Positions 9,148 to 63,302 of a DNA stretch of 64,000 bases are shown here, in pieces. Each line of letters begins with the position of its first letter. Within the stretch, counting starts at the first letter, position 1. The stretch is from contig CAYUUR010000002.1 of the NCBI GenBank assembly GCA_964448075.1, positions 222,010 through 286,009 on the forward strand, written 5' to 3'. The position numbers and the translations under genes were made by a program. Under the pieces are notes generated by a model. It was not told the origin of the DNA. It saw only the letters and a list, made by a program, of their open reading frames with translations, and did not search any database. The DNA comes from an uncultured Candidatus Saccharibacteria bacterium (GTDB lineage Bacteria; Patescibacteriota; Saccharimonadia; Saccharimonadales; CAYUUR01).

Positions 9148-9174
9148 CCACATAGTCGCTAGAGTATAAGCACA

Positions 9175-9537
9175 ATGTTAGACCAGGGAGCTTTTTCACA
9201 ACAGACTGGCGGAGGGGTGCAGACTACAAACCCGCAGTCTGTTCCGTCATCTAATTTGCAACCGCAAAAAAACAGCTTGCAGGGTCCAGACTCGCAGGTG
9301 CTTGGCGCGGCTACGTTTCTAGAACAATCTAGTACTGCGGCAATCTCTGTTAATGGTCAACAGGTCAACGCAGAAATTACTGAGCTAGAAACTAATCAAC
9401 GCCTACCGGGTGATTCGCTTACGTCAGCCATTGCCGGACGTGAGTTTTTTGTGGTTGGTGCAGTTTTGATTGTTATTGGCGTATTGGCATATGTGTTGTC
9501 GCGACAAATAATGCGTGATCACCAAGATGCTTCCTAA
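9175..9537 (+). CDS. hypothetical protein, C-terminal TM anchor
   Basis: 120-aa ORF with a Q/S-rich N-terminal half and a single C-terminal hydrophobic helix. Confidence 0.5.
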   Translation: MLDQGAFSQQTGGGVQTTNPQSVPSSNLQPQKNSLQGPDSQVLGAATFLEQSSTAAISVNGQQVNAEITELETNQRLPGDSLTSAIAGREFFVVGAVLIVIGVLAYVLSRQIMRDHQDAS

Positions 9538-20073: not shown

Positions 20074-21177
20074 ATGATTCAGTATTTCAATGTGATATTC
20101 CGATTAGCTCAAACCTTGACCAAGGCGTATTTCCGCGACAAGGTCGCCTTATTCTTCACTTTCATTTTTCCACTAATTTTTCTCTTGGTTTTTGGTTCGC
20201 TCAACAGTAACAACGACGGTGTTTCATTCGATGTAGCTATCATTAATGAGTCGAAGGCGCCGTTTGCTCAGCAGTTCACAGAAGAACTAAACAAGAGCGG
20301 CTCAGTTAAGGAAAAGAAAGTAGAATCTCTTGAAGATGCCAAGGAACAGATGGGGCGAGGTGAGCTCGATACGATAATCGTAATGCCGCAAGAATTTGGT
20401 ATGCCCAACCAGAACAACCAACCTGGTGGAAATTTGATTGTGTATGTTGATCCAAACAGCGTGCAGACTGGCCAGACCTTTGCCTCGATCATGGAGTCAG
20501 TCTTAAGTGATATCGAAAGCGGAATAACCGGCCAGAAACCGCTGTTTAGCGTTGAGCAAGTTTCGACTGGCAAGAATGGGCTGGAGCCGTTTGACTATGT
20601 CTTTGCAGGTTTGCTTGGGTTTTCTATTCTTTCATTAGGCTTCTTTGGTCCGACCAACAGCATTCCTAGTCAGAAAAAAGAAGGTATCTTGCGCCGTTTG
20701 CGAACCACTCCACTCAGGACTTCTCAGTATGTACTAGGCACGACACTTAACTATTTACTGGTGGGGATTATTACAATTGCGTTGTTGTTTATTGTTGGTC
20801 TAATTGTGTTTGACTTCAAAATGCAAGGAAGTTATCTGGCCTTTGCGTTGATCGCAGCCTTTGGTGTGGTGATGATGTTTGGCTTTGGTTTGGCGGTAGG
20901 CGGCTGGGCTAAGAATGAGAATCAGGCTGCGCCACTGACTAACCTGATTGCCTTTCCAATGATGTTCTTGAGTGGTGTGTTCTTCCCGCGCTTTCTGATG
21001 CCCGAATGGCTCCAAAGTATTTCTGACTTTTTGCCACTGACACCATTAATTGACGGCATCCGCAAGATTATTACCGAAGGTCAGTCACTGCTGCAGCTTG
21101 GCCCAGAGCTCGCCATCATGACCGTTTGGACGATTGTTATCTACATCATTGCTTTCCGTGTCTTCCGCTGGGAATAG
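20074..21177 (+). CDS. ABC-2 family transporter permease
   Basis: 367 aa with an N-terminal TM helix, a large extracytoplasmic loop and five C-terminal TM helices. The start lies 2 nt after the ATPase gene stop. Confidence 0.8.
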   Translation: MIQYFNVIFRLAQTLTKAYFRDKVALFFTFIFPLIFLLVFGSLNSNNDGVSFDVAIINESKAPFAQQFTEELNKSGSVKEKKVESLEDAKEQMGRGELDTIIVMPQEFGMPNQNNQPGGNLIVYVDPNSVQTGQTFASIMESVLSDIESGITGQKPLFSVEQVSTGKNGLEPFDYVFAGLLGFSILSLGFFGPTNSIPSQKKEGILRRLRTTPLRTSQYVLGTTLNYLLVGIITIALLFIVGLIVFDFKMQGSYLAFALIAAFGVVMMFGFGLAVGGWAKNENQAAPLTNLIAFPMMFLSGVFFPRFLMPEWLQSISDFLPLTPLIDGIRKIITEGQSLLQLGPELAIMTVWTIVIYIIAFRVFRWE

Positions 21178-21863
21178 CCACTTCTTTCTCACCAGCTAAA
21201 GCTCCCGGCCTGTTCTTTGCTTAAAGGCATGCATTAAATTTATCTTACCGAGCAAAGCTCGGCGCCCATCTCCTTTTGCTCCGCCAAAAGGAGCAAAAGC
21301 TCCCGGCAGAACAATAACAGGCCTGATCTGTTGATATTGCTCACAACGGCACGGCCAACTCACCGCAGTTTACTGCGGCTCAAACACGACCGTGCCATTA
21401 TGTTGATGATCAATACAACATCTCAATCAGGGCCTTATGCTCTATGCCGGTAACCACTCCCGGACGATCAATCTAGAATATGTACGTCCGGGAGTGGGGT
21501 CCGGGCATGAAGCAGACACCTGAGTAGATGTAGTAAAAAGGGCTGGCCCTTGGGGTTCCTTCGGGTGTTTGAGGGAATAGTTATGCCTTGACGGCATGAC
21601 TATTACCGAGTTACGAAGGCAAAGCCCGTTTTTACTACAGATACATCAAGTGTTTGATTCGGCCCGGTGGTTTTACTCCACTTTTGCCATTCAAAAGTGG
21701 GATGTGATTTGGTTCTTTGGAAAAGAACTTATTGGTTTTGGCGGACCAAAAGGAGGGGGATGACAGCTTCAGCTGACAAAAGGAATATGAATCATACTAA
21801 CCACACCTTGCTCACCCCATAAAGCTCATGCTAAACTACCCCTAATAACAAGAGAGAGTTATT
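21178..21863 (+). ncRNA. large structured non-coding element, copy A (unclassified)
   Basis: 686 nt with no ORF of 60 aa or more. It is repeated at 57408-57969 with identical blocks separated by hairpins that differ in sequence but keep their pairing. T.G wobble pairs fit the + strand only. Confidence 0.55.
21829..21837 (+). promoter_or_regulatory. extended -10 box (TGCTAAACT) of propeller operon A
   Basis: Identical in both operon copies (the second is at 57935-57943). It lies 26 nt upstream of the conserved TTG start. Confidence 0.45.
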
Positions 21864-23768
21864 TTGGGTACCAAATCGCTACTAACACACAAAAAAACCA
21901 CACTAACAATCCTAGCCCTATTAGCTAGCCTATTGCTCTCCATCCTAAATCCTTTACGAGCTAGTGCTGTAATACCAGGGACGCCAGTGGAGGGTTTCTC
22001 GGTTATTGCCAGTGGAGGAGTGTATGCAACGGCCGTAACCAACGACGGTACGCTATATATTGGTGGATACTTCACCTTAGTTGATGACACTGAGTTACCA
22101 GATTATCGAACATTAGTCAGGATTTTACCCAACGGCGAGGTTGACAATAGTTTTGATGTCGGTATCGATAACCAAGTCACTACGCTTGAAGTTTCTCCAG
22201 ACGGAGAGACTCTGTTTGTCGGAGGATTCTTTAATGAGGCCACCGGGTCGAATGGAACTTTTGACAGGCGCAACCTAGTATCCTTCTCTACGGACGATGG
22301 CGTAGTAACAGCCTTTGATCCAAGACCAAGTGGCTACGTTCATAATCTTGAAATAAACGCAGCTGGAACGACAGTGTATGTTGCAGGGGAGTTTACAACT
22401 GTAAACAGCCCATTCGTCACACGCAATCGTTTAGCCGCTTTCGATACGAGCACTGGCGTTGTATCAGCTTTTAACCCCAATCTAGGAACGCGTTCATATG
22501 CACTGGCTCTCGATGAAGCGAATAATACTCTTTATGTGGGCGGCCAGTTTGTTACCGTTAATGGAGGCACGACGCGGAGGCGTTTGGCTGCCTTTAACAC
22601 TTCCACTGGCACAGCAACAGCATTTAATCCAAACATAGACAGTTCGGTCGTTACAGCGAGCTCAAGCAATATTGTATACTCGCTGCTCTATGACGATGAT
22701 AGCGGTCTGTTATACGTAGGCGGCAGTTTTACTACCGTAAACGGTGGAACTGTTCGTAACCGCCTCGCTGCTCTTAGTACTTCTACTGGTACCGCAACCG
22801 CTTTTGACCCTAACCTAGGTGCTCAAGTAGAAGATCTAGCACTTGATACCAACGATCAGGTTTTATATGCCTCAGGTACTTTCACTACCGTAAACGGCGG
22901 GACAGTTCGCAATCGTCTTGCTGCGTTCGATACGACTACAGCCACAGCGACGTCTTTTGACCCTAACCCAGATAGCCCATTGTATGCTTTGTCGTTTGAT
23001 TTGCCACGGAAGGCTTTATACACTGGCGGTGACTTTACGCAAATTGGCGGCATTGCACGTAACGGCCTTGCCGCCTTCCAAGACCCCGACCTAGACAACG
23101 ACGGCACCCCCAACACAGAAGAACAAGCTGCCCCAAACAATGGTGACGCCAACAACGACTCTATCCCAGACTCCCAACAAGCCAACGTCACCTCCATCCT
23201 CAACACCGACTCTAATGAATACGTCACCATTGTTTCTCCCTCTGGCACCACGCTCTCTACCACCACAGCAGAAGCCGCCCCCACTGAAGCAGGCTTCACC
23301 CATCTCTTTGGCCTCACTGGCTTCACTATCTCTGGTGTAACTCCCGGAGACACTATAGAAGTATCACTCTTCTATCCCAACCCAAACAACCTAGACCCAA
23401 CTGACCTAACCCCCAAGAAATACTTCCCATCCACCACCAGCTACCAAGACCTCCCAACCACTGCCCCCACTAACACCACCATCACAGAACAAACCATAGA
23501 CGGACAACCAACCTTGAACCTCACATACAACCTCACAGACGGAGGAGACTACGACCTAGACAACACAGCAGACGGACAAATCACAGATCCAGTGTCTCTA
23601 GCTTCCACTAACCCTACTACGACAACAGAAACCACCAACACCTCCACATCCAACCAAGACACCCTCGCCGAGACCGGACAGAGCCAAACCATGATCCTCA
23701 TCACCTCCATGCTCCTAGTTAGCCTAGCTACCACCGCCTACACCTACAGGAAGAGACAGGACATATGA
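21864..23768 (+). CDS. LAETG-anchored surface protein, DUF5122/delta-60-type beta-propeller repeats
   Basis: TTG start and signal peptide ...LNPLRASA. About 9 repeats fit the form LYVGGxFTTVNGGTxRxRLAAFxTSTGTATAFNPN. An acidic DLDNDGTPN..NNGDANNDSIPD stretch follows. The C-terminus is LAETG + hydrophobic + RKRQDI. Confidence 0.85.
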   Translation: MGTKSLLTHKKTTLTILALLASLLLSILNPLRASAVIPGTPVEGFSVIASGGVYATAVTNDGTLYIGGYFTLVDDTELPDYRTLVRILPNGEVDNSFDVGIDNQVTTLEVSPDGETLFVGGFFNEATGSNGTFDRRNLVSFSTDDGVVTAFDPRPSGYVHNLEINAAGTTVYVAGEFTTVNSPFVTRNRLAAFDTSTGVVSAFNPNLGTRSYALALDEANNTLYVGGQFVTVNGGTTRRRLAAFNTSTGTATAFNPNIDSSVVTASSSNIVYSLLYDDDSGLLYVGGSFTTVNGGTVRNRLAALSTSTGTATAFDPNLGAQVEDLALDTNDQVLYASGTFTTVNGGTVRNRLAAFDTTTATATSFDPNPDSPLYALSFDLPRKALYTGGDFTQIGGIARNGLAAFQDPDLDNDGTPNTEEQAAPNNGDANNDSIPDSQQANVTSILNTDSNEYVTIVSPSGTTLSTTTAEAAPTEAGFTHLFGLTGFTISGVTPGDTIEVSLFYPNPNNLDPTDLTPKKYFPSTTSYQDLPTTAPTNTTITEQTIDGQPTLNLTYNLTDGGDYDLDNTADGQITDPVSLASTNPTTTTETTNTSTSNQDTLAETGQSQTMILITSMLLVSLATTAYTYRKRQDI

Positions 23769-35507: not shown

Positions 35508-36962
35508 GTGACCACTAAGTCTCGGCGCGCTAATCGCCCAAAACAAACTCGTCGTAACGAACTACTGCTCTTTGGGGCAATGCTTGTATTGTTGGTCGTA
35601 AAGTACCTGAACATTACTAAACTTGGCGGCAACATGATGCAGTTTCTTACGGCGTATAAGTTTGTATTGACCGATAGCTTTGATTGGTTAGCAACAGGCA
35701 TAACACTGTTTCATAACGAATCAATCACCATGAGAAATCCTGGACTACCCTTGGTTGTTAAGTTCCTCAACCACTTTGGAGTGATTTACCTACTGCCGCT
35801 ACTCAATCAACTGGCTTTTCTAGGGTTAGTTGTAGTGGTGTACTACACCGTTAAACATCTGACGAAGAACGCCAAGTTTGCCGGGCTGTTTGCGATATTG
35901 GTCTTTACAAATTACGCGTTCAATCTACTAGCGAACTATATTCTGGCAGACATGTACGCCACGACGGCAATTGCGGTTGCACTGTATCTGCTGCTGACCA
36001 AACGATACACTTGGTCGTTTGTGGCGCTTGGTGTGTCTATGTTGTTTCAAAACTTTGCCTACTTTTTGTACATTATGTGGTGCGCATACTACATTACTGA
36101 GCAATGGGCAGCAATAAAGGCATTGTTTAGGCGCAAGGGATCATTACAATTACGAAAGCTGAATGTGCTTATTCCGTTACTGATTCCAGGATTGATGGTG
36201 CTGCCGTGGCATCTGTATAAATTTGTGGCCTTCGGAAACCCCTTTTATACCAAGGTTGACCAGCTGGCAGTGGTTGACCCGACGTTTACTAACTTATCGT
36301 TCTATGCCTACCACGCGCTTATTATGTGGGGGCCATTACTTCTCATAACGATTGTTGCAACGGTGGCTACGCTCATTAAGAAACCTTCGTTCTTTGCAAA
36401 TAAAACCATGCTCTTTCTACTAAGTGGTTTTGTATTCTCGGTTGTTTTCTGGGGAGTATTTTATGATTGGCCTGACAGACGGTTTCTCCTGTACATAACG
36501 CCGTGGTTCTACGCCCTGTCTGGTGTAATCGTCTATCGTTTTGTTCCACGGGCACCGCGGCTCATGAAATATGGACTGGCATTTGTCGCAATCTACGTGG
36601 CAACACTTCCAATAGTGTTTGTCGACGACCAAAAGACATTTCCATTAATTGATGACACGGTGGTAACCGTTGTCCTGCAATCACAGACGGAGCGTTTGCG
36701 TATAGATAATACCGAAGGTTTTGATTCGCCACTTATGAATGTATCGCCAACGCTCTATGATTCATTTGACCGCACAGAGTATTACAAGCAAGAAGAAAGT
36801 GGCAAGTACGTGATCGCGGAGCGAATGGTTAAACGATCTTATGATAGCCAGAAAGTCTGCGTTGAGCGCGATGCTTCTGTAAAGCCCTACATCACCAGTT
36901 CTGTTACGCTCATACTACATCCAGACGTTAATCTAGATCAGCTGAAACAAACATGTAAATAA
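35508..36962 (+). CDS. polytopic GT-C-fold glycosyltransferase-like membrane protein
   Basis: 484 aa with more than 10 TM helices followed by a soluble C-terminal domain. The architecture resembles ArnT/PMT. Confidence 0.45.
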   Translation: MTTKSRRANRPKQTRRNELLLFGAMLVLLVVKYLNITKLGGNMMQFLTAYKFVLTDSFDWLATGITLFHNESITMRNPGLPLVVKFLNHFGVIYLLPLLNQLAFLGLVVVVYYTVKHLTKNAKFAGLFAILVFTNYAFNLLANYILADMYATTAIAVALYLLLTKRYTWSFVALGVSMLFQNFAYFLYIMWCAYYITEQWAAIKALFRRKGSLQLRKLNVLIPLLIPGLMVLPWHLYKFVAFGNPFYTKVDQLAVVDPTFTNLSFYAYHALIMWGPLLLITIVATVATLIKKPSFFANKTMLFLLSGFVFSVVFWGVFYDWPDRRFLLYITPWFYALSGVIVYRFVPRAPRLMKYGLAFVAIYVATLPIVFVDDQKTFPLIDDTVVTVVLQSQTERLRIDNTEGFDSPLMNVSPTLYDSFDRTEYYKQEESGKYVIAERMVKRSYDSQKVCVERDASVKPYITSSVTLILHPDVNLDQLKQTCK

Positions 36963-36966
36963 CACT

Positions 36967-38097
36967 ATGAAACACGTTGAACGCATCCAAAAATATGTAC
37001 GCAAGAACTGGCTATACCTACTGCCGTCAGTCATTTTTATCTTTGTTTCAATGGTGTTGATTGCTATCAATCGTTCATTTATCTTTGAGCGCGAGTTTAT
37101 TAGTCAGTATGGCGATCAGCAGCTCTACTACAAACTCGCACGTGGCGTGCTCAATGGTGAGTTCCCAAAAAGTCCTTACACGCTGGGCTACCCAATGTTG
37201 TATATGCCGCTTCTTTTGCTGACGGGCATCAAAGAAAGCTGGACAAGCATCATGCCACTGGCGATTTTTGTGCAAGCTTTTGTGCTGATGCCAATTACGT
37301 TGTTTTTGGTGTTTAAGGACAAGCCCCGCAAGTGGCTGATGTATAGCTTTGCGGGTTTGTGTGCCTACTACGGTTTATTCTTTTGGGCATCAACCGACAT
37401 ATTAATGAAGTACAACTTCTTTGGACTCATTCCTTTAAGTGAGCCACTGGCAATTTTTTGTCTGATATCAGGTTACTATGTATACCTCAAGTACCTGCAG
37501 ACCGACACGCCGCGATTGCGCTTTCTTGTATTGTTCGCGGCCCTGTTTGCCTGGAGTATTATGACGCGCAGTACTAGTATCATCCTGTACCTGCCAATCT
37601 TTATAGAACTGTTACTAGATAGGCGCCTCAAACCCATCGCAATCATTGGAGGTGTTTCGGCTCTTTGGTACGCACCTCAGATTGCTTACAACTATCTCTG
37701 CAGTGGTGATCCATTATTTAATGGTTATGTATGGTGGGCAAATGGCAAGGTGGCTAAGAACACCAACAACATCGAGTCACTGTATGGGTTCCGTTCTAGT
37801 GCCATGTTCTCATTGCGCTACCTAGTAGTGAACATCAAGGATTTGGCTCTAGAGTACGTCCCGTTTCTACTGTTATGTGGCGTTGTTGCACTCAAGCGTA
37901 ATCGGCTGGTGGTGTTAGTTCTCGGCTGCTCGCTGCTTAATCTTGTTTTCCATTTGGCGTACTGGTGGTCAAATTACGGCGGGCTACTGCACCGCTTTTT
38001 GCTCCCCAACATCTTCTTACTATTGTTTGTCTTTAGGAACGAACTTGTCTATGGTTCAAATCACATAAGGAAGAAGTCACATAGTGCAGAACGTTAG
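36967..38097 (+). CDS. polytopic GT-C-fold glycosyltransferase (ArnT/PMT_2-like)
   Basis: 376 aa. The first extracytoplasmic loop, YGDQQLYYKLARGVLNGEFPKSPYTLGYPMLYMPLL, fits the D-x-x-x-Y..A..G..P..Y..GYP pattern of GT39/GT83 enzymes. Confidence 0.55.
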   Translation: MKHVERIQKYVRKNWLYLLPSVIFIFVSMVLIAINRSFIFEREFISQYGDQQLYYKLARGVLNGEFPKSPYTLGYPMLYMPLLLLTGIKESWTSIMPLAIFVQAFVLMPITLFLVFKDKPRKWLMYSFAGLCAYYGLFFWASTDILMKYNFFGLIPLSEPLAIFCLISGYYVYLKYLQTDTPRLRFLVLFAALFAWSIMTRSTSIILYLPIFIELLLDRRLKPIAIIGGVSALWYAPQIAYNYLCSGDPLFNGYVWWANGKVAKNTNNIESLYGFRSSAMFSLRYLVVNIKDLALEYVPFLLLCGVVALKRNRLVVLVLGCSLLNLVFHLAYWWSNYGGLLHRFLLPNIFLLLFVFRNELVYGSNHIRKKSHSAER

Positions 38098-38138: not shown

Positions 38139-38798
38139 CTAGTTAAAACGGAATGATTTAACGATAGCTCGGTATTCATCGAGGTACTTGTCAAAGTCAG
38201 GGTTAGTTGTGTCAGCATAGTTGATTATGTACACCACATCGTCCTTATAGAACTGTGTTTTAAGGCTCGGTGGCCCTTCATAACCCAATCGATACTCAAC
38301 AGCATCTTGTCCGGCTACTTTGAGTGATTTCTCGTCACTGGTATACAGAACCTTGCCACTAACATAATCTGCGATAGATGTCTTTCCTTGGGCTGTTTGA
38401 GCACTTACCGTAACGATCGCGCCCTTAGTAACTCCACCGTAGGCATCATCAGTTTTCTCTTTGTAATCCGCTGATTTAATGTGTACTTTTGAATATACCC
38501 CAGTGAAACCTTCTGGCTTTGCGACTTTTTCAATGGTCCACTCTTTTGGATAGTCAAAAGAGTACTTTAACTCAGAATGCGTGTAGGTGGCTGTTTTGTC
38601 TTCAGTCTTATTAGTCTCGGTATCACTGTTTGTTGTTGCCGGTTGCGTCGTCTGTGTGATTGCGGCTGTATTGTCATTTTTTGATTGCTGCCGGTCATAG
38701 ACAAGCCAACCCACTGCGCCCAGAAGTCCTAAAACCACGACTACGACGATTACTTCTACAACACTGAAGCCTTTTTGATTTGTTTTCATTATATTCAT
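38139..38798 (-). CDS. type IV pilin-like protein (prepilin N-terminal cleavage/methylation domain)
   Basis: MNIMKTNQKG|FSVVEVIVVVVVLGLLGAVGWLV has a G|F cleavage site with Glu at +5. A T/S-rich linker follows. Confidence 0.85.
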   Translation of the reverse strand: MNIMKTNQKGFSVVEVIVVVVVLGLLGAVGWLVYDRQQSKNDNTAAITQTTQPATTNSDTETNKTEDKTATYTHSELKYSFDYPKEWTIEKVAKPEGFTGVYSKVHIKSADYKEKTDDAYGGVTKGAIVTVSAQTAQGKTSIADYVSGKVLYTSDEKSLKVAGQDAVEYRLGYEGPPSLKTQFYKDDVVYIINYADTTNPDFDKYLDEYRAIVKSFRFN

Positions 38799-45998: not shown

Positions 45999-47042
45999 TT
46001 ATTGCTTATCGGATTGAATTGCTTCTAACTGCGAAAAAAGCTTAGACAGGCGAAAACGGTACGTGCCTGATTCTATGGCAAAAAGTCCATATTCAGGTGG
46101 CAAAACTTCTTCGGCATGTGCCATAAGTATGTTGTCACTCGGCTCAATCGTTTTTCCGACCAGTTCCGTCAACGTACGTGCAATAACGAGCTGTTTTTCT
46201 CGGTATAACCGCGGAAGCTCCCTGGGCTCAAAAGTTTCATATAGCATTAGTGTTGTCATGAGCGCCGGCACCGACTTAAACCACATGGTGCTGACCATTG
46301 AACCAACAGCTTCTCTTGTGTAAGCAACACCAGTGTAGCGATGGTTAAAGACACCAAAAATCTTGGAAGGAGAGGTAAGCATTGCTTTGATGTTTGGCGC
46401 GGATACGTCGAGGGGGTGTTCGTCAGGCGTCAAGCCGCCATAGGCATAATCGAGTACGACTTCATGCCCCGCCTCAATAAATTGCTGCAAGGCATAGTCG
46501 TCATACCAGTTGCCGTCTATGGCGCTTGGATTGGACAAAAACCACACCCTGCCATCTACGGGATCGCCAGTTGCTTCAATGTTTGGAACAGAATGAACTG
46601 GTATATTCAATCCAATTGCCTCCAGAATATAGCCATCGTAGTCGCCTTGCACAAAACCAAGCTCGGTCATTTCGCCCGAGCGTGACCAACCTGCCATCAA
46701 ACGAAAGATTGCATCTGCAGATCCATGGGTTGCGTATTGGTTTTCAAAACCTGCCAACCCAGACAGTAGCGGTTCGTTTCGTTCGGTAATTCGCGATGTT
46801 ACTGGTTCTTGCAAATGTTCAAAGTCAACATATCCGTTCTGGTCTGTTGGTATTTCAAGGTCGTGAGTAAAGTGGTATCCGCCTTCATCAAGCAGCTCTC
46901 TCGCCTCGGGAACGGTCAGCGTGCTCATGTGAAAAGTCTCTGGCAGGCGCAAGCTTCCCACTAGTTCGCGAACCTCTGGGAAGGGATAGCAAAGGACGGG
47001 CACGATCAAATCATTCGGCTCAACAATAAGTCGCTCGCTCAT
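45999..47042 (-). CDS. PLP-dependent aminotransferase-fold protein (class I/II-like)
   Basis: LTSPSKIFGVFNHRYTGVAY fits the S-x-S-K..G..G-x-R-x-G PLP-lysine motif. I chose the start at the ATG 47042, which forms an ATGA overlap with the upstream stop codon. Confidence 0.6.
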   Translation of the reverse strand: MSERLIVEPNDLIVPVLCYPFPEVRELVGSLRLPETFHMSTLTVPEARELLDEGGYHFTHDLEIPTDQNGYVDFEHLQEPVTSRITERNEPLLSGLAGFENQYATHGSADAIFRLMAGWSRSGEMTELGFVQGDYDGYILEAIGLNIPVHSVPNIEATGDPVDGRVWFLSNPSAIDGNWYDDYALQQFIEAGHEVVLDYAYGGLTPDEHPLDVSAPNIKAMLTSPSKIFGVFNHRYTGVAYTREAVGSMVSTMWFKSVPALMTTLMLYETFEPRELPRLYREKQLVIARTLTELVGKTIEPSDNILMAHAEEVLPPEYGLFAIESGTYRFRLSKLFSQLEAIQSDKQ

Positions 47043-47716
47043 GTCTTCGTTCCTTGCGGTTTGGGTTTTTGGATATTTTGCATTTCGATCTTGCAGGTTT
47101 TGCACTCGCCGCATTCAATTGGCTTGCCGCGGACGTATCGCGGGGTCCGGCATGACCATGTCAGGGCGGCTAATTCTGGTGGCAGCGTTTTGTAGACCTC
47201 GGCTTTGGTGAGGTGGCTGTGCGGGTATTCTTTGATGCGAGCACTGTGGTCGTCTTCGTCAGGATGATAGGCGTTATGCATACGTTTTCCGCGCATAACG
47301 GAACCACTAACGCCGAGGTCAAAATCAGTCTTGGTAGCGGCAATCACCACTTTGGTAATGCTTGGGTCTCGAGATGTCATGTAGCCGGTGATAAAGCCCA
47401 TGACCTCAACATCATAAAGAAAGTGATTGCCAAAGTGCGGGGTATTGATGGTCGATTCGCTTGTAGTGAAAGGGGTTGGAGCGTGTCTACGCATGTATTC
47501 ATATATCGCTTGCACGGCTGCAGCCTCAGCCTGCCACCGCCTTTCGACATTCTTGATATGGATGTGATGAACGTGCACCTCGCCATAATCTTTAGGATGG
47601 TTGAGTACATGCCACAGTGCGGCCGTCGAATCCATGCCACCAGAAAACATCACCAGCGTGCGCTGCTTCTGCTTGCGCCGCGGTTTGCTTGCCTGCCTCT
47701 TTGCCTTTTCCACCAT
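47039..47716 (-). CDS. QueC-like PP-loop ATPase (7-cyano-7-deazaguanine synthase family)
   Basis: LVMFSGGMDSTAAL is an SGGxDS PP-loop. C-x12-CGECKTC near the C-terminus resembles the QueC zinc site. The gene has its own TATACT promoter and a GAGGGA SD. Confidence 0.65.
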   Translation of the reverse strand: MVEKAKRQASKPRRKQKQRTLVMFSGGMDSTAALWHVLNHPKDYGEVHVHHIHIKNVERRWQAEAAAVQAIYEYMRRHAPTPFTTSESTINTPHFGNHFLYDVEVMGFITGYMTSRDPSITKVVIAATKTDFDLGVSGSVMRGKRMHNAYHPDEDDHSARIKEYPHSHLTKAEVYKTLPPELAALTWSCRTPRYVRGKPIECGECKTCKIEMQNIQKPKPQGTKT

Positions 47717-55535: not shown

Positions 55536-57407
55536 ATGGATAAAAAACCCTTCAAGAACAAGAAGAAGCTTACCGGTGGGGACAAGAAAAAAGGTATCAA
55601 GAATGTCATCTTTGCCTTCATGCTGTTATTTGTGGGCCTGCTGATACTAGCGGCAACAAATCAGCCAAGTAAACTTGAATCAGTACCAATCAACGAAGTT
55701 ATTAACCGAGCTAACAATGGTGAAATAAAGCAAATCACTGTTCAAGGCAATGAACTGACGATTACTAAGCAAGGTGAAGATCAACCGAGCCAAGAATCTC
55801 GCAAAGAAGCGGGCTCAAGTATTTACGAACAAGGGCTAGAAAACCGAGATGTAAAAGTTCTGATAGAGCCAGCGTCAGACAGCGGATCAACCTGGACAAA
55901 CCTAGGCATTTCACTCCTCCCGGTGTTGCTCATTGGTCTGATCTTGTTCTTTATGCTGCGTAGTGCACAGGGTCAGGGCAACCAAGCAATGAGCTTTGGT
56001 AAGAGCAAGGCGCGTCTATATGGCAATGAAAAGTCAAAAGTCATGTTCAAAGATATTGCCGGGAGCGAAGAAGCCAAACAAGATCTTGAGGAAGTAGTTG
56101 AATTCCTCAAATTCCCGAAGAAGTTTGAGTCAGTTGGCGCCAAGATACCAAAAGGCGTACTGCTCGTTGGCCCTCCAGGTACCGGAAAAACAATGATCTC
56201 ACGGGCAGTAGCTGGGGAAGCGAATGTACCGTTCTTTAGTATCTCCGGTTCAGAATTTGTGGAGATGTTTGTCGGTGTAGGTGCATCGCGCGTGCGTGAC
56301 TTGTTTGCCAAGGCCAAAAAGAATGCACCGTGCATTATTTTCATTGACGAGATCGATGCAGTCGGCCGTCGTCGTGGTAGTGGAATGGGTGGCGGACACG
56401 ATGAACGCGAACAAACACTGAACCAGATTCTGGTTGAGATGGACGGATTCGAACAAGGGCAGAACGTTATTGTTCTCGCTGCAACTAACCGAGCAGATGT
56501 ACTCGACCCTGCTCTGTTGCGTCCGGGCAGATTTGACCGTCGAGTCGCTGTAGGGCTGCCTGATCGCAAGGATCGGGAAGCAATTCTGAAAGTGCACTTC
56601 GAGAAAAAACCTTTGGCTAAGAATGTTGATCTTGATGCTTTGGCAGCCAAAACCGCCGGTTCGTCAGGTGCTGATCTTGCTAACATTGCTAACGAAGCAG
56701 CCATTACGGCCGCGCGCCATAACCGCAAAGAAATTACCCAGTCAGATCTGACTGCTGCGTTTGAAAAAGTTGCCATTGGTCCAGAGCGTAAGAGCAAGGT
56801 AATGAGCGAAAAGGAAAAAGAACTTACGGCCTATCATGAGGCTGGTCATGCAATTGTTGGTCACGTTCTGCCTGACAGCGACATGGTGCATAAAGTTACG
56901 ATTATTCCGCGCGGTGGAACCGGTGGAGTCACCTGGTTTATACCGCCCGAGGACAAGAGTTATCATTCGATTGTTGAGTTCAAAGACGTACTGGCACGTA
57001 TGCTCGGCGGTCGTATTGCTGAAGAAGTCATGTACGGTAAAGACCATGTAACGACAGGTGCAGGTAATGATCTGCAGAAAGCTGCAGAACTTGCCCGTGA
57101 TATGATTGTAAATCAAGGCATGGGCAAAAAGCTGCGCGACCAAGTCTTCCATGTAGAAGAAGGCATCATGATGGAACGAGTTATGCACGAACGACAGTAT
57201 TCTGACGAAACAGCTAAGGTTATTGACGATGAAGTCGAAGCACTCATCAGCGAAGCAGCCGATCGTGCCCGTAAAGTTATACGTGCCAACAAGACGAAGC
57301 TTGAAGAACTTAAAGTAGCTTTGATCGAGAAAGAAACAGTCGAAGCCGAAGAAGTGCTCGAGATCCTTAAAGGCAGCAAAATGCCCGCCGATGCCGCCCT
57401 GTACTAG
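55536..57407 (+). CDS. ftsH: ATP-dependent zinc metalloprotease FtsH
   Basis: Two N-terminal TM helices, an AAA+ module with Walker A GPPGTGKT and Walker [12 protein letters not shown], and the HEAGH zinc site. Confidence 0.95.
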
Positions 57408-57969
57408 CCTACAGTAAAGCAAACTCCATCATGCCAGCTAAAGCTGACGTTCATCTCCTTTTGGACCGCCAAAAGGAGCAAAAGCTCCCGGCAGCCTCCT
57501 CCCTTGACTGGTCTATTGCTGAAATTGACAATGGCCAGGCCAACTCACCGCAGTAAACTGCGGCTCAAACACGACCTGTCCTTGTATTGCTCAATTTCAC
57601 AATATCCCAATCAGGGCAGAAGACTCTATGCCGGCAACCCCGCCCGGACGTCCATAGCCGCCACTGACGTCCGGGTATGGGCGGGCATGTCCAGGAGTCC
57701 TGAGTAGATGTAGTAAAACGGGCTGGCCCTTGGGGTTCCTTCGGGTGTTTGAGGGAGTTAATATGTCATGTGGCATATTAACGAGTGAGTTACGAAGGCA
57801 AAGCCCGCTTTTACTACAGATACATCACGACTACAGGACGGCCCGAGGGTTTTGGCTACTTTTGCTATTCAAAAGTAGTGAAGGATTTGATTCTTTGAAA
57901 AAGAACGGTGAGGTTGCTCACCCCATAGCGCTCATGCTAAACTACCCCTAATAACAAGAGAGCGTTATT
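57408..57969 (+). ncRNA. large structured non-coding element, copy B
   Basis: 562 nt between ftsH and propeller operon B, collinear with 21178-21863 apart from two A-specific insertions. Confidence 0.55.
57935..57943 (+). promoter_or_regulatory. extended -10 box (TGCTAAACT) of propeller operon B
   Basis: Identical to 21829-21837 and 26 nt upstream of the TTG start. Confidence 0.45.
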
Positions 57970-59868
57970 TTGGGCACTAAAGCACTGCTAACACATACAA
58001 AAACCACACTAACGATTCTAGCTCTAACTGCTAGCCTATTGCTCTCTGTCATTAGTCCTTTACGAGCCAGTGCTGCGATACAAAGCGCGCCGATTTCAGG
58101 TTTCCCACAAACAAATACAAATGGGGCAGTCTACGCTATCGCTGAAGGTTCAGATGGTTCGGTATATGTGGGAGGTCAGTTTACGACAATCGGTGGGGTG
58201 AGCAGGAATGACGTGGCTCGTATTTTATCAGACGGCAGTGTCGACCCTGATTTTAATCCCAATGTAATTGACGGCAGCCATTACGAGGATATGACAGAGG
58301 TAAGGTCGCTAGCCTTTGATAATCAAGCAGGCACGCTCTATATTGGTGGGAATTTCGATACGATTAATGGTAATGTCGCACGGAACGGCCTCGCTGCCGT
58401 TGATGGGCAAACAGGAGTTGTCACGGGCTTTAATCCAAATATTATCTACGGAGATGCCCCTTTTGATTACGTTGGCACAGTAAACACCCTGGAAATCAAT
58501 CAAGATACCAATACCATATACGCGGGTGGTGCTTTCGGCTATGTGAATGGAGCCACCGAGCGCGTTGACTTAGCAGCATTTAGTATGAGTACCGGCACAG
58601 TAACAGGTTTCAATGCCGACATAAGCAACTTTGCATGTATCGAAAAAACAGTCTACGATCTCGATTATGATAGTACTGGCGGGCATCTCTACGTAGCAGG
58701 TCACTTTGGCACGTTTAGCGATACGGCGCGAGGCGGAATAGCGCGCGTTGATTCAGACACTGGGGCGCTTGATGAAGGCTACAATCCAGATATCTCATCT
58801 ACGGAACAACTATGCGCGTATGTATATTCCATTGAGCGATACGATAATGTGGTATATGCAGGTGGAATTTTTGACACAGTTAATGGTTCCGTATCACGTT
58901 CAAACGTTGCAGCTTTTGACACGACCGACGGCACCGTAACTGCGTTTGCACCCGAGCTCGTTATCGATGAGTACCCATTCGTACTCAAATATTTACCTGC
59001 AAGCGAAACATTGCTCATCGGAGGATCAATCTCTCAAGTTAATGGGGTTACAAGGAACGAGCTGGCGGAAGTAAAGGTAATTGACGGAAGTCTCACAGAC
59101 TTCAACCCAAATATTACGAGTAACGCAAATAGTGTCCATGCCCTGGAGTCTCACGCTGATGGTACGCTGTATGTAGGCGGTACCTTTTATCGAGTCGGGG
59201 GAGTCTCCCGCAACGGCCTCGCCGCCTTCCAAGACCCCGACCTAGATAACGACGGCACCCCCAACACAGAAGAACAAGCTGCCCCAAACAATGGTGACGC
59301 CAACAACGACTCTATCCCAGACTCCCAACAAGCTAACGTCACTTCCATCCTCAACACCGACTCTAATGAATACGTCACCATTGTTTCTCCTCCCGGCACC
59401 ACGCTCTCTACCGCCACAGCAGAAGCCGCCCCTAATGAAGATGGCTTCACTCATCTCTTTGGCCTCACTGGCTTCACTATCTCTGGTGTAACTCCCGGAG
59501 ACACCATAGCAGTATCACTCTTCTATCCCAACCCAGACAACCTCAATCCTGACTCGCTAACTCCTAAGAAATACTTCCCGAGTACTACCACGTACCAAAA
59601 CATAGAAGGCGCCACGCTCACTCATGAGATCATCAACTCTCAAGCTACTCTTATGCTCAATTACTCACTGACTGATGGCGGAGGCTATGACCTTGATGGT
59701 GTTGTAGACGGTAGCATTACTGACCCAGTATCGTTAGCGCTCGCCGACGTGGACAGTCAAGCGCTCGCCGACACCGGCAGTATGGTAATGAGCACGTATG
59801 TCTCAATATTGACGTTAGTGGGTGTAGGGGCGGTTCTATTGGTCTTCCAGAGAAGGAGGCGTGTATGA
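57970..59868 (+). CDS. LADTG-anchored surface protein, DUF5122/delta-60-type beta-propeller
   Basis: TTG start. The signal peptide is about 85% identical in nucleotides to that of 21864. The propeller body is divergent. The acidic and pre-anchor module is near-identical to 23061-23450. The C-terminus is LADTG + hydrophobic + QRRRRV. Confidence 0.85.
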   Translation: MGTKALLTHTKTTLTILALTASLLLSVISPLRASAAIQSAPISGFPQTNTNGAVYAIAEGSDGSVYVGGQFTTIGGVSRNDVARILSDGSVDPDFNPNVIDGSHYEDMTEVRSLAFDNQAGTLYIGGNFDTINGNVARNGLAAVDGQTGVVTGFNPNIIYGDAPFDYVGTVNTLEINQDTNTIYAGGAFGYVNGATERVDLAAFSMSTGTVTGFNADISNFACIEKTVYDLDYDSTGGHLYVAGHFGTFSDTARGGIARVDSDTGALDEGYNPDISSTEQLCAYVYSIERYDNVVYAGGIFDTVNGSVSRSNVAAFDTTDGTVTAFAPELVIDEYPFVLKYLPASETLLIGGSISQVNGVTRNELAEVKVIDGSLTDFNPNITSNANSVHALESHADGTLYVGGTFYRVGGVSRNGLAAFQDPDLDNDGTPNTEEQAAPNNGDANNDSIPDSQQANVTSILNTDSNEYVTIVSPPGTTLSTATAEAAPNEDGFTHLFGLTGFTISGVTPGDTIAVSLFYPNPDNLNPDSLTPKKYFPSTTTYQNIEGATLTHEIINSQATLMLNYSLTDGGGYDLDGVVDGSITDPVSLALADVDSQALADTGSMVMSTYVSILTLVGVGAVLLVFQRRRRV

Positions 59869-61727
59869 GTTTGGCGCGAAGAATGACTGCGTTCTCTTTG
59901 GCAATTAGCTTTGCATTTATTGGCATGATTACTTTACTCAATCCTATGAGTGTGCATGCGGCCTTACAGGACACGGCGATTGCTGATTTTCCTGTAACAA
60001 ACGGTGCAGTGTATGCAATTGCTGCTTCATCTGACGGGTCAGTATATATCGGCGGTACATTTACCTCTGTAGACGGAGTTTCACGACGTAATGTTGCACG
60101 GATATTGAGTGATAATTCTGTCGACCCAGACTTTAATCCGAGCATTTATGCGGACGGGGATAACCCTGATGTAGTCAATTCATTTGTACTTGATGAGAGC
60201 ACTGCAACATTGTACGTTGGCGGTGGCTTCAATACTGTTAATGGGTCAACGACCAGGAATAATGTCGCAGCCGTTAATTCAGAAACAGGCCTTGTGACGG
60301 CGTTTAACCCGAACGTGAATGGCATGGTTCATACCCTTGAGCTTAATCCGGATGATGACATCCTGTATGCCGGCGGAAGCTTTACGACGGTCAATGGCGG
60401 TACGAGTCGCAAAGACCTGGCAGCATTCAACATTAATACGTCGACAACAACAGCATTCGATGCAGACATAGAAACGACAACGTGTGATGTGGGGGCAGAA
60501 ACAGTGTATGACTTGCTGTTTGACGCAAACGCCGATCGTCTATACATAGCTGGTCATTTCTATTCAGTCGCAGAACATTATTCACGTGGTCTGGTGTCCG
60601 TTAATCCAACAAGTGGCGCACCTGATGCAGCATTTGACCCAGATATAAGGTATTCAGGTGATGACGCCGATCTTGGACAGTGTTCAGATATATACAGTAT
60701 TGAAAAGTTAGGTAGTACGATATATGCTGGCGGATTCTTTGATAATGTCAATTCAGGTGCTGAAACTCGCACTAACTTCGCTGCATTTAACGCTGCAACC
60801 GGCGAGGTGACCACACTAGATATGGCATTCGATTATGCTGTGTATGATCTGGCGATCGACCCAATAGGTGGGGATCTTTACTTAGGCGGTAGTTTTTCTA
60901 TGGTTAATGGCTCAACTCAGAGAAATGAAGCCGCTGCCATTGATCTCGATACAGGTGAACTCACAACCTTTAACCCAAACATAACTACCGATCCTCCCGA
61001 ACCCTCTGTCCATACTATAGCTTTTAGTGATCGTGGCTATTTTTACGCTGGCGGTACTTTTGATCGTGTTGCCGGTGAGCCGCGAGCGAGTTTGGCGGCC
61101 TTTGCTAACCCCGATCCTGACAACGATGGCACCACCAGTGAAGTCGAAGATGCTGCCCCAAACAACGGTGATGCCAACAACGATGGTACCCCCGATGCCG
61201 AACAGGCTAATGTCACCTCATTCGTTAGTGCCGAAACAAACCAATATGTCACCATCGTCACGCCGTCAGGTACGACGTTATCAACGGTAACAGCCGCAGC
61301 AGCCCCAACTGAAGACGCCTTCACTCATTACTACGACCTCGTGGGCTTCACGGTAGAAGGAGTGACGCCAGGGGCTTCCATAGACATAACTATCCTGCAG
61401 CAAAATCCTGATTCAATTGAGGCCGACCAGCTGACTGCCCGCAAATACTTCCCAAGCACGGCCAGCTACCGAACCATTCCAAATGCCACCATTAGCAATC
61501 AAACTATCAACGATCAACCCGTACTCAGCCTGGCATTCAGCATTACAGACGGCGGAGACTACGATCTCGACCAAGCAGCTGACGGCAGCATTACCGATCC
61601 CGTATCGCTCGCCGCCACAGACCAAGACACCCTCGCCGAAACAGGACAGAACCAAACCATGATCCTCATCGCCTCCACACTCCTACTCGCCCTATCTCTA
61701 TACAAAGCCAGAAAGCTATACACATGA
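59865..61727 (+). CDS. LAETG-anchored surface protein, DUF5122/delta-60-type beta-propeller
   Basis: ATGA-coupled start. Repeats fit the form LYxGGxFxxVNGxxxRxxxAAxNxxTGxxTxFNPN. The C-terminus is LAETG + hydrophobic + KARKLYT. Confidence 0.85.
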   Translation: MSLARRMTAFSLAISFAFIGMITLLNPMSVHAALQDTAIADFPVTNGAVYAIAASSDGSVYIGGTFTSVDGVSRRNVARILSDNSVDPDFNPSIYADGDNPDVVNSFVLDESTATLYVGGGFNTVNGSTTRNNVAAVNSETGLVTAFNPNVNGMVHTLELNPDDDILYAGGSFTTVNGGTSRKDLAAFNINTSTTTAFDADIETTTCDVGAETVYDLLFDANADRLYIAGHFYSVAEHYSRGLVSVNPTSGAPDAAFDPDIRYSGDDADLGQCSDIYSIEKLGSTIYAGGFFDNVNSGAETRTNFAAFNAATGEVTTLDMAFDYAVYDLAIDPIGGDLYLGGSFSMVNGSTQRNEAAAIDLDTGELTTFNPNITTDPPEPSVHTIAFSDRGYFYAGGTFDRVAGEPRASLAAFANPDPDNDGTTSEVEDAAPNNGDANNDGTPDAEQANVTSFVSAETNQYVTIVTPSGTTLSTVTAAAAPTEDAFTHYYDLVGFTVEGVTPGASIDITILQQNPDSIEADQLTARKYFPSTASYRTIPNATISNQTINDQPVLSLAFSITDGGDYDLDQAADGSITDPVSLAATDQDTLAETGQNQTMILIASTLLLALSLYKARKLYT

Positions 61728-63244
61728 TCTCTCGCGTAAAACAACAACTAAACTTACTGACCAAATTCTTCACCATAACTGCACTAACTTTAAGCCTTCT
61801 CTTACCAGTCACTATCAGTGCAGCGCCAGAGCCAACTGATGTACCGGAGTTTATGGCTACCTGGGGAAGTAATGGTACCGGGGATGGACAGTTTGGTACT
61901 CCTGCAGGTGTAGAAACGGACCAGTTCGGTAATCTATATGTTGCAGATTCAGAACAAAACCGAATACAGAAGTTTAATCCATCGGGTGAATACCTAGACC
62001 AGTGGGACGGTAGTGCCAGTGGGAACGGTACTTTTAATTTGCCAGCCGGCTTAACGTTTACGCCAGATGGTAGCATTTATGTACTGGAAACATACGGCAG
62101 CAGGCGAGTCATGAAGTTTGATTCAAATTGGAATTATTTGTCACAATGGGGCGGTACTGGTTCTGGCAATGGTAAGTTTAATTCTCCATCAGGTATTACG
62201 AGCGACTCCCTTGGTAATATATACATTCTTGATGCCGGTAATAGGCGGGTACAGAAGTTCGACTCGGATGGTACCTACATAACAAAGTGGGGCAGTAATG
62301 GCTCAGGTAATGGGCAGTTCTTTATTCCGCAAGGTATTGCAACAGACAGTGATGACAATATTTACGTTGCAGATACTTATAACGACCGGGTACAGAAGTT
62401 CGACTCGGATGGTGCCTACATAACAAAGTGGGGCAGTAATGGCTCAGGTAATGGGCAGTTCAATCAGCCTTTTGGTATAGAAATTGACTCTCAGGGCAAT
62501 GTTAACGTAGCTGATATCGGAAATTCTCGTATCCAAAAATTTGATGCTAATGGCACCTATCTAGCACAATGGGGTACTGAAGTTCCTAGCTTCGCCCCAT
62601 ACTACATTGCTGCCGATTCTAAAGGTAACGTGTATGCGTCAGACGGTAATAACTTACTTATTCAAAAATTTACCTATGCCCCAGAAACTGTAACTCTAAC
62701 GAGTGCCGAGTCTGGTGCAGACATAAAACTATCTGCCGACGCCTTCACTACCTTCAGCTGTAGTACGTCTGTAACTGAAGACTCTCTAGCTACATCAGAC
62801 ACCACTCAAGACTACCCCCACGGTCTGGTAGACTTCTGTCTTGATGTAGTACCCGGTTCTGCTAATACCGTATCCCTGACCTTTGCAACAGACCTCACTC
62901 CCGACCAGGTCACCGCCAGAAAATATAACCCTACCACCCAGACTTACACTGATATACCTGACGCCACAATAACTGCAACCACCCTCAACGGTAACCCAGC
63001 CCTCCTCCTCACCTATGACATAACAGATGGTGGAGACCTAGACGATGACAATACAGCCAATGGAACTATCCTTGATCCAGTAGGTCTAGCGATAGCTGCC
63101 GAAACCACAACCAACACCAATACGTCTGATACGGACGCTTTGGCGGAGACGGGGGAGAGCAGATACGTTGGCTTGGCAGGCGCTTTAATCCTGACGATTA
63201 TGGGATTGCTTGTGCTTACGAAACGCCTCTACATTCGACAATAG
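61724..63244 (+). CDS. LAETG-anchored surface protein, NHL-repeat beta-propeller
   Basis: ATGA-coupled start. Six repeats fit the form G.G.GQF..P.GI..D..GN.YV.D..N.R.QKFD..G.Y. The pre-anchor module is shared with the BNR protein. The C-terminus is LAETGESRYVGLAGALILTIMGLLVLTKRLYIRQ. Confidence 0.85.
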   Translation: MISRVKQQLNLLTKFFTITALTLSLLLPVTISAAPEPTDVPEFMATWGSNGTGDGQFGTPAGVETDQFGNLYVADSEQNRIQKFNPSGEYLDQWDGSASGNGTFNLPAGLTFTPDGSIYVLETYGSRRVMKFDSNWNYLSQWGGTGSGNGKFNSPSGITSDSLGNIYILDAGNRRVQKFDSDGTYITKWGSNGSGNGQFFIPQGIATDSDDNIYVADTYNDRVQKFDSDGAYITKWGSNGSGNGQFNQPFGIEIDSQGNVNVADIGNSRIQKFDANGTYLAQWGTEVPSFAPYYIAADSKGNVYASDGNNLLIQKFTYAPETVTLTSAESGADIKLSADAFTTFSCSTSVTEDSLATSDTTQDYPHGLVDFCLDVVPGSANTVSLTFATDLTPDQVTARKYNPTTQTYTDIPDATITATTLNGNPALLLTYDITDGGDLDDDNTANGTILDPVGLAIAAETTTNTNTSDTDALAETGESRYVGLAGALILTIMGLLVLTKRLYIRQ

Positions 63245-63302
63245 TGTAAACATAAAAAAACGAGGTTTCTAATTATGGCGCATGAATCTATAATTGTAGG
63301 TA

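Follow-up and report, generated by a model that had tools for sequence, protein, structure and literature searches.

An ORF-less cassette carried twice by a Saccharibacteria genome has paralogous, oppositely oriented halves resembling structured RNAs

Saccharibacteria and other bacteria of the Candidate Phyla Radiation (CPR) have tiny genomes with very little non-coding DNA. Here we describe a gene-free element of about 0.5 kb that occurs twice in a 64,000-nucleotide (nt) stretch from an uncultured Candidatus Saccharibacteria bacterium (contig CAYUUR010000002.1 of assembly GCA_964448075.1). This stretch is called the window below, and the coordinates of both copies are window positions. Copy B stands directly downstream of ftsH (55536-57407, stop codon 57405-57407), and copy A follows an ABC-2 permease gene (20074-21177). 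An operon of secreted delta-60/DUF5122 beta-propeller proteins lies 3′ of each copy, and the nearest named relatives of the protein downstream of the element are Saccharibacteria proteins. The assemblies of samples SRR16481186 and SRR16481187 contain an identical copy of a protein encoded at this locus. The initial annotation of the window had described the element after ftsH as a second, diverged, collinear copy, and the alignments bear this out: B 57421-57913 and A 21236-21735 are collinear and about 76% identical, with blastn returning one match of 486 nt at 76% identity and another of 61 nt at 95%. No further copies were found in the 64 kb, either by blastn or with R1, a covariance model built from the left half of the element (domain 1) in its minus-strand sense.

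Copy B had been delimited as 57408-57969. The element is indeed present there, but the final 56 nt (57914-57969) hold the promoter-like block and 5′ untranslated region (UTR) of the propeller gene. The second of two insertions described as specific to A is real, whereas the first, a CCGAGC hairpin (A 21236-21268), aligns with B 57421-57449 when a third copy, from locus L011 of the related metagenome-assembled genome (MAG) GCA_018001115.1, is used as a guide; the true A-only left segment in that guided alignment is 21192-21235. The second A-specific segment (21736-21778) repeats the left end of the element in inverted orientation, at 81% over 43 nt by blastn. Every hairpin named for copy A was found there, and the ORFs (open reading frames) of 67 and 73 amino acids (aa) are, as stated, present in B and not conserved in A. 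When every ORF of the element was translated and the products were concatenated, a protein-database search found no relatives at E ≤ 10. With ORFs that differ between A and B and lack homologues, the element does not appear to be a protein-coding gene or a type I toxin gene. The best-supported description is of a putative self-contained, ORF-less cassette, flanked in the window by the upstream gene on one side and by the propeller promoter block on the other.

Folding against shuffled sequence gives z = -6.7 for B, -10.0 for A and -9.4 for the L011 copy. The A/B consensus comprises 150 base pairs, of which 24 carry changes to both partners and 5 a change to one partner only, which G-U pairing accommodates in each case; none is broken. 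Slid-register controls yielded 0-3 double changes, and the observed paired-change counts were matched by 0 of 500 shuffles. These 24 double compensatory changes, with none of the 150 pairs broken, uphold the earlier proposal that selection acts on structure and that B is not simply a drifting duplicate. The pattern of compensatory substitution is that of a probable functional structured RNA, with the caveat that the sequences are few and that the consensus structures come from, or were fitted to, the very sequences in which covariation was counted. At the gathering threshold, Rfam 15 reports only three tRNAs in the window; at E ≤ 10, copies A, B and L011 gave, on either strand, only chance microRNA and snoRNA matches, none above 19 bits. 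The families covered include OLE, GOLLD, ROOL, HEARO, raiA, 6S, RNase P, tmRNA, group I/II introns and small ribozymes.

The two halves of the element are RNA-like on opposite strands. For domain 1 of A, B and L011, respectively, the minimum free energy (MFE) is -69, -72 and -73 kcal/mol in the minus sense versus -50, -48 and -57 kcal/mol in the plus sense, and the z-scores are -7.4, -8.8 and -6.6 versus -5.5, -5.3 and -5.0. The three-sequence consensus energy follows suit (-80.6 minus, -63.0 plus), as do G-U instances (21 versus 3), and the plus strand is C-rich in all three copies (GC skew -0.18 to -0.26). Domain 2 of A and B has the reverse preference, with MFE values of -85 and -70 on the plus strand versus -72 and -58 on the minus strand, an A/B consensus energy of -76.1 versus -57.0, 12 versus 2 G-U instances and a G-rich plus strand (skew about +0.2). 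Opposed GA dinucleotides in the main stem, a UGAG/GAGU internal-loop arrangement and a UUCG loop are sensible only on these strands, where we infer the tandem G-A motif from the alignment. In the predicted folds, these measures show domain 1 to be RNA-like on the minus strand and, less securely, domain 2 on the plus strand.

The covariance model further shows the halves to be inverted paralogues, whose modeled unit measures about 170 nt, or about 230 nt once the leader and end hairpin are counted. R1, built on the minus strand of domain 1, matches plus-strand domain 2 from end to end, at 29.8 bits in A (21492-21679; E = 7.7e-6 over 77 kb, filters off) and 17.3 bits in B (57674-57858), a match that therefore points to an old head-to-head duplication. 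In a four-sequence alignment of unit 1 with unit 2 of A, fitted to the R1 model structure, 32 of 61 pairs have changed on both sides and 93% of cells pair, against 5-11 double changes in slid controls. The halves differ at most aligned positions. They share the motifs GC(C/G)GGCAU(A/G)(G/A)AG, CCUGA.U.GAUGU.GUA, ACAGAU and GCC(G/C)GG.G.UUUU, together with GUGUUUGAG followed by a hairpin and then GAGUU. Plain local alignment of half against half is significant around the central palindrome only, and the paralogy needed the covariance model to be seen.

The third copy was reached through synteny: L011 carries the closest FtsH, with 99% amino-acid and 83% nucleotide identity. Between its ftsH, on the plus strand, and the next gene, murJ, lies a gap of 735 nt that contains no gene, and no propeller operon is present. 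Within the gap, 9197-9438 aligns in reverse complement with B 57421-57658 (75%) and A 21243-21466 (80%), and 9448-9503 matches the right-hand hairpin module in direct orientation at 92-93%. The second half of this copy forms a hairpin of similar size (8887-9175), which folds at -123 versus -104 kcal/mol with the better strand in the expected polarity, and a minus-strand terminator-like hairpin stands at its end.

The distribution is patchy and, so far, confined to two related Saccharibacteria genomes of a narrow lineage. Nine comparable sites in relatives lack the element (L001, L002, L005, L006, L007, L008 and L012-14); they cover both the ftsH-to-propeller and the ABC-permease-to-propeller kinds of locus, and R1 run over the window and 11 loci gave no further copies. 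A scan of genome contigs with the domain-1 apex block found none, with a fixed 16-nt gap that would miss the 17-nt hairpin of L011; the promoter block found L007 only, which is an empty site. Scans of metagenome contigs with the domain-2 and promoter blocks found none, the promoter scan missing a known Joint Genome Institute contig (L005). Viral scans gave one chance match (L004, inside a coding region) and a 20-nt exact match in L003, and blastn against phages and plasmids gave none. The scans of public collections relied on exact patterns, one of them missed a known relative, and absence elsewhere is therefore a weak statement. The L003 sequence (IMGVR_UViG_3300005758_000102) agrees at 167-197 with window 21597-21627 in 29 of 31 nt (TGACTATyAmCGAGTTACGAAGGCAAAGCCC), a three-way-junction strand of A domain 2, and the viral site is intergenic, immediately following a terminator. 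L003 has nothing of the remaining element (R1 5 bits), and the match may be a short shared motif or chance.

Table 1. Features of copies B and A of the cassette and of their flanks (window positions; MFE in kcal/mol; L011, locus of the related MAG).
Feature	Position	Strand	Remarks
Spacer after ftsH stop codon	57408-57420
B left tail	57421-57454	-	Aligns with A 21236-21269 and L011 9405-9440 (reverse complement); on the minus strand, a 3′ tail after the domain-1 unit with small hairpin CAGC-TAAA-GCTG, then AGUUUGCUUUAC
B left end hairpin	57455-57478	.	CTCCTTTTGG-ACCG-CCAAAAGGAG; L011 counterpart GTTACTTTTGG...CCAAAAGTAAC, stem changes compensatory
B domain-1 unit	57475-57644	-	R1 187 bits minus versus 24 bits plus; predicted long irregular hairpin with tandem G-A motif and UGUUUGAG/GAGU internal loop below the apical CCGCAG hairpin; MFE -71.7 (minus) versus -48.3 (plus); z -8.8 versus -5.3; plus-strand GC skew -0.26
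B central GC-rich palindrome h	57637-57686	.	CCCGGACG...CGTCCGGG, predicted hairpin; symmetry centre of the head-to-head pair; arms conserved in all three copies; self-inverted match centred at the equivalent point in A
B domain-2 unit	57674-57858	+	R1 end-to-end match; predicted long hairpin with three-way junction; MFE -69.8 (plus) versus -57.9 (minus); GC skew +0.21
B right end module	57855-57905	+	Hairpin GCTACTTTTGC-TATT-CAAAAGTAGT, then U-rich tract and small hairpin TTCTTTG-AAA-AAGAA; 92-93% identical to L011 9448-9503 and A 21680-21728
B promoter-like block and 5′ UTR hairpin, outside the element	57914-57969	+	-35 TTGCTC 57914-57919; extended -10 TGcTAAACT 57935-57943; propeller gene TTG start at 57970
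A left tail	21192-21269	-	21236-21269 homologous to the B and L011 tails, includes CCGAGC-AAA-GCTCGG; A-only 21192-21235 in part repeats AGCTAAAGCTCCCGGC
A left end hairpin	21270-21293	.	CTCCTTTTGC-TCCG-CCAAAAGGAG
A domain-1 unit	21290-21460	-	R1 185 bits minus; MFE -68.9 versus -50.2
A central palindrome h	21455-21499	.	Loop with back-to-back -10-like hexamers TAGAAT / TAGATT, one per strand
A domain-2 unit	21492-21679	+	R1 end-to-end match
A right end module	21677-21728	+	Hairpin TCCACTTTTGCC-ATT-CAAAAGTGGG and small hairpin TTCTTTG-GAA-AAGAA; flagged terminator-like on the plus strand
A-only inverted left-end copy	21736-21778	.	TTTTGG-CGGA-CCAAAAGGAG...CAGC-TTCA-GCTG; by blastn, 81% (43 nt) against the reverse complement of B 57432-57474 and 95% (20 nt) against A 21270-21289
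A promoter-like block and 5′ UTR of propeller gene 21864-23768, outside the element	21808-21863	+

The end hairpins were also searched for as the pattern CTTTTG-N(2-12)-CAAAAG. It occurs 5 times in the window against 0.07 expected, with 4 of the 5 inside A and B, 3 times in L011, and in none of 13 other loci. The sole window instance outside the element (38543-38560) is probably chance; it falls inside a minus-strand ORF (38139-38798) with an N-terminal methylation (pilin-like) motif. An SD (Shine-Dalgarno) meaning for the CTCCTTTTGG...CCAAAAGGAG hairpin, as a pair of SD and anti-SD, was considered and dropped, since L011 has TTAC/GTAA there. In copy A only, 21752-21822 contains a strong Shine-Dalgarno-like AAGGAGG, an ATG and a 20-codon ORF ending inside the propeller promoter block; this arrangement is absent in B and L011.

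We favour, with about even confidence, an explanation in which the cassette specifies two divergently oriented structured non-coding RNAs that act in trans and has been gained, copied and flipped by recombination. The observations behind it are the fold and its compensatory evolution, two paralogous halves of opposed polarity, a patchy distribution and a flip in orientation. Independence of the flanking genes is supported by the inverted L011 core and by the terminator-like hairpin that closes the second half of that copy on the minus strand. The cassette would have originated in an ancient inverted (head-to-head) duplication of one structured-RNA unit. That unit would be a rod of about 170 nt, a hairpin with GC(C/G)GGCAU...GCC(G/C)GG as its closing helix and with a conserved motif of tandem G-A mismatches; the conserved internal loop below the apical hairpin, with UGUUUGAG on its 5′ side and GAGU on its 3′ side, is a second candidate for a G-A motif. 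An A/U-rich 10-bp hairpin (CTTTTG...CAAAAG) would follow the unit. In the window, the minus strand would encode unit 1 and the plus strand unit 2, with the two 5′ ends meeting at the GC-rich central palindrome. We infer separate transcription of the halves, each strand giving a stable structured non-coding RNA that would work in trans, probably as a protein-bound particle. Selection on one specific strand of each half would have kept both in shape. The cassette would have been gained, copied to a second locus and flipped via recombination at its palindromic ends; recombination or mobility at those ends is likely because the element sits at two unrelated loci, is flipped in its ortholog and carries an extra inverted left end in A.

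Several observations weigh against this explanation. The known copies number three in two genomes, two in 64 kb and one in the fetched contigs of the related MAG, and the alignment behind the paralogue pair count was fitted to the structure of R1. The second half of L011 has no recognisable homology to domain 2 (8 bits). The z-scores of domain 2 do not separate the strands, and its polarity is therefore less secure. With so few copies, common descent accounts for many of the shared G-U positions, and independent G-U events are roughly 12 versus 3 in domain 1 and only 4-8 versus 2 in domain 2. The centre, where divergent promoters would be expected, is GC-rich, with good -10-like hexamers in copy A only; the equivalents in B (CATAGC/CTATGG) fit the -10 consensus poorly. 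Most 3′ ends of the units are without a canonical terminator. A and B share blocks of 39-57 nt without substitutions, which possibly reflect gene conversion, not constraint. The helices are almost wholly Watson-Crick, and template-switch correction or gene conversion in DNA quasi-palindromes can also yield paired changes.

The main rival, which we consider unlikely, is a selfish DNA-level foldback, resembling a miniature inverted-repeat transposable element (MITE), which makes no functional RNA and whose hairpins are used at the DNA level, single-stranded or not, by a transposase or recombinase with its gene elsewhere. Its paired changes would come from quasi-palindrome template switching or arm-to-arm conversion. 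Such a repeat would suit the absence of the element from all nine comparable sites, its two copies at unrelated loci of one genome, the opposite orientation at an orthologous locus, the related palindromic hairpins at both ends with A's extra inverted left end, the nearly all Watson-Crick helices and the fact that no promoter was found. Like MITE, foldback and REPIN (repetitive extragenic palindromic, or REP, doublets forming hairpins) repeats, among them Correia elements and REP sequences with their bacterial interspersed mosaic elements (BIME), the cassette is ORF-less, patchy at syntenic sites, found in either orientation and near promoters. Unlike them, it shows no target-site duplication: flanks compared by eye with the empty sites L005 and L007 have no consistent direct repeat, and CTCACC flanks A only. 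A terminal inverted repeat is found in A only, since the inverted left-end copy at the right end of A is missing from B, while related end hairpins occur in all copies. The known copy number is low, and no transposase, recombinase or reverse transcriptase was found among window ORFs of at least 100 aa. The elaborate interior, with its covariation and loops, also speaks against a selfish repeat. Internal loops, bulges and G-A motifs are conserved rather than corrected to perfect palindromes, and a consistent polarity in each half, across strongly diverged halves, is not expected of cruciform DNA.

The model of the initial annotation, in which transcription runs on from ftsH or the permease gene and one structured plus-strand RNA of some 500 nt is then processed out of the transcript, is improbable. 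Its premise that neither upstream gene is followed by a recognisable terminator stands, in that no canonical plus-strand terminator was found between the upstream stop codons and the element; a terminator-like hairpin at the plus-strand 3′ end and a slightly better whole-element consensus fold on the plus strand (-168.3 versus -161.2) are also in its favour. The single-sequence whole-element MFE, however, favours the minus strand, and domain 1 is clearly better on that strand in all three copies. More broadly, one large plus-strand RNA is at odds with halves that are opposite by folding energy, z-score, G-U counts, GC skew and tandem G-A motifs and that are inverted paralogues besides. The core of L011 is inverted relative to ftsH, and read-through from ftsH is therefore not a general source of the RNA. 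Pseudoknots joining CUCAAACAC with GUGUUUGAG and CAACUC with GAGUU were considered and dropped: their apparent complementarity arises because the same motifs sit in inverted paralogous halves, and the complements are not conserved in L011. Complementarity between conserved "loops" of a seemingly single large RNA may thus stem from inverted duplication, and polarity should be checked for each domain.

Very improbable, in our view, is an inverton, a segment flipped between inverted repeats so as to change transcription of the downstream surface-protein operon (phase variation). Like fimS-type invertons, the cassette spans a few hundred bp, is bracketed by inverted repeats in copy A, lies in the window directly upstream of sortase-anchored surface propeller operons and has its core in both orientations between related genomes, the right-hand hairpin module keeping its orientation. 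Unlike them, it has no recombinase domain encoded among window ORFs of at least 100 aa, and the promoter of the downstream genes is conserved and lies outside the element. The right repeat is missing in B, no propeller operon adjoins in L011, the orientation difference is seen between species only, and the structural conservation would go unexplained, an inverton having no need of 150 conserved base pairs.

Hardly credible is a cis-regulatory leader of the propeller operon (a giant riboswitch or attenuator) or a small-protein gene: propeller genes do adjoin at both window loci and a 5′ UTR hairpin buries the start codon, but the promoter block lies between the element and that start codon and is kept in relatives without the element. 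The element therefore does not appear to be the gene's leader. The apparent link to the downstream gene is not supported, no propeller gene stands beside the L011 copy, and the ORFs are broken between copies and have no homologues. The block itself (57914-57969 in B, 21808-21863 in A) carries a promoter-like TTGCTC-N18-TGcTAAACT, a promoter predicted from sequence, followed by the 5′ UTR hairpin that includes the TTG start codon. It is 93-98% identical in relatives that have only a 28-113-nt gap upstream of the propeller gene (L001, L005, L007, L008).

This block and the propeller genes have features of their own. Over 62-72 nt the block reaches 93-98% identity in comparisons of genomes in which ftsH DNA is only about 75% identical, a case of non-coding ultraconservation (window 57914-57975 and 21808-21870; L005 3237-3300; L007 1885-1948; L001 1366-1431; L008 4162-4208). 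The propeller proteins (21864-23768, 57970-59868 and neighbours) have a signal peptide and a C-terminal LAETG/LADTG with a hydrophobic stretch and a basic tail, which looks like a sortase-type cell-surface anchor in an episymbiotic bacterium. Two propeller paralogues are 91% identical over 393 nt (23058-23450 versus 59209-59601) and 64-76% elsewhere, which suggests gene conversion; gene conversion therefore appears to happen here, and the substitution-free blocks of A and B may reflect it. The short-read (Logan) contigs L009 and L010 break near this tract. No propeller operon stands between ftsH and murJ in L011 (8887-9621), whereas this interval holds three genes in the window (57408-63263) and one to three in other relatives, and the deletion or insertion coincides with the flipped element. 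Elsewhere in the window, ORFs of 371-495 aa without a Pfam match at E ≤ 1e-5 lie at 1040-2527, 35508-36962, 36967-38097 and 45999-47114.

Among known RNAs, the closest parallels to the favoured pair of divergent RNAs are the large "ornate" bacterial non-coding RNAs of unknown function (OLE, ROOL, GOLLD and raiA, all Rfam families), on which there is cryogenic electron microscopy work (PMC12286853). Like these, the cassette is several hundred nt long, intergenic, ORF-less and multi-helical, with compensatory change and conserved unpaired blocks between covarying stems; unlike them, it has no covariance-model match, is known from two genomes only and consists of two opposite-strand paralogous halves rather than one transcript. 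In its apparent layout it also recalls divergent type I toxin-antitoxin loci (tisB/istR-1, zorO/orzO), where two short RNA genes lie back to back with a shared centre, but its putative RNAs are paralogous, not complementary partners, and it lacks a small hydrophobic ORF conserved between copies. Each unit, like 6S RNA and other rod-like regulatory RNAs, is an irregular hairpin some 170 nt long in which the internal loops are conserved; unlike 6S RNA, it lacks a large central bubble, and Rfam gave no match to the 6S family at E ≤ 10. A group II intron was considered and dropped (no GUGYG 5′ end, no domain V-like hairpin by eye, no Rfam match), as was a retron or diversity-generating retroelement (DGR), a reverse transcriptase not being found in the window.

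A bolder proposal, which we think rather improbable, is that the cassette represents a new class of genetic element in episymbiotic CPR bacteria, made of twin head-to-head RNA genes that move and flip at their own end hairpins. Their RNAs, with the invariant UGUUUGAG/GAGU loop, might then form a new ribonucleoprotein or help to recombine the cassette itself, which would be a mobile element that depends on RNA and lacks a linked protein gene. To our knowledge, almost no regulatory RNAs are known from the Saccharibacteria/CPR lineage. About 0.5 kb of gene-free DNA with dozens of compensatory changes, present twice in 64 kb of a tiny genome, is therefore unlikely to be idle. If its halves are expressed, they would constitute a new structured-RNA family with an unusual layout, in which back-to-back paralogous RNAs lie on a cassette that is gained, copied and inverted.

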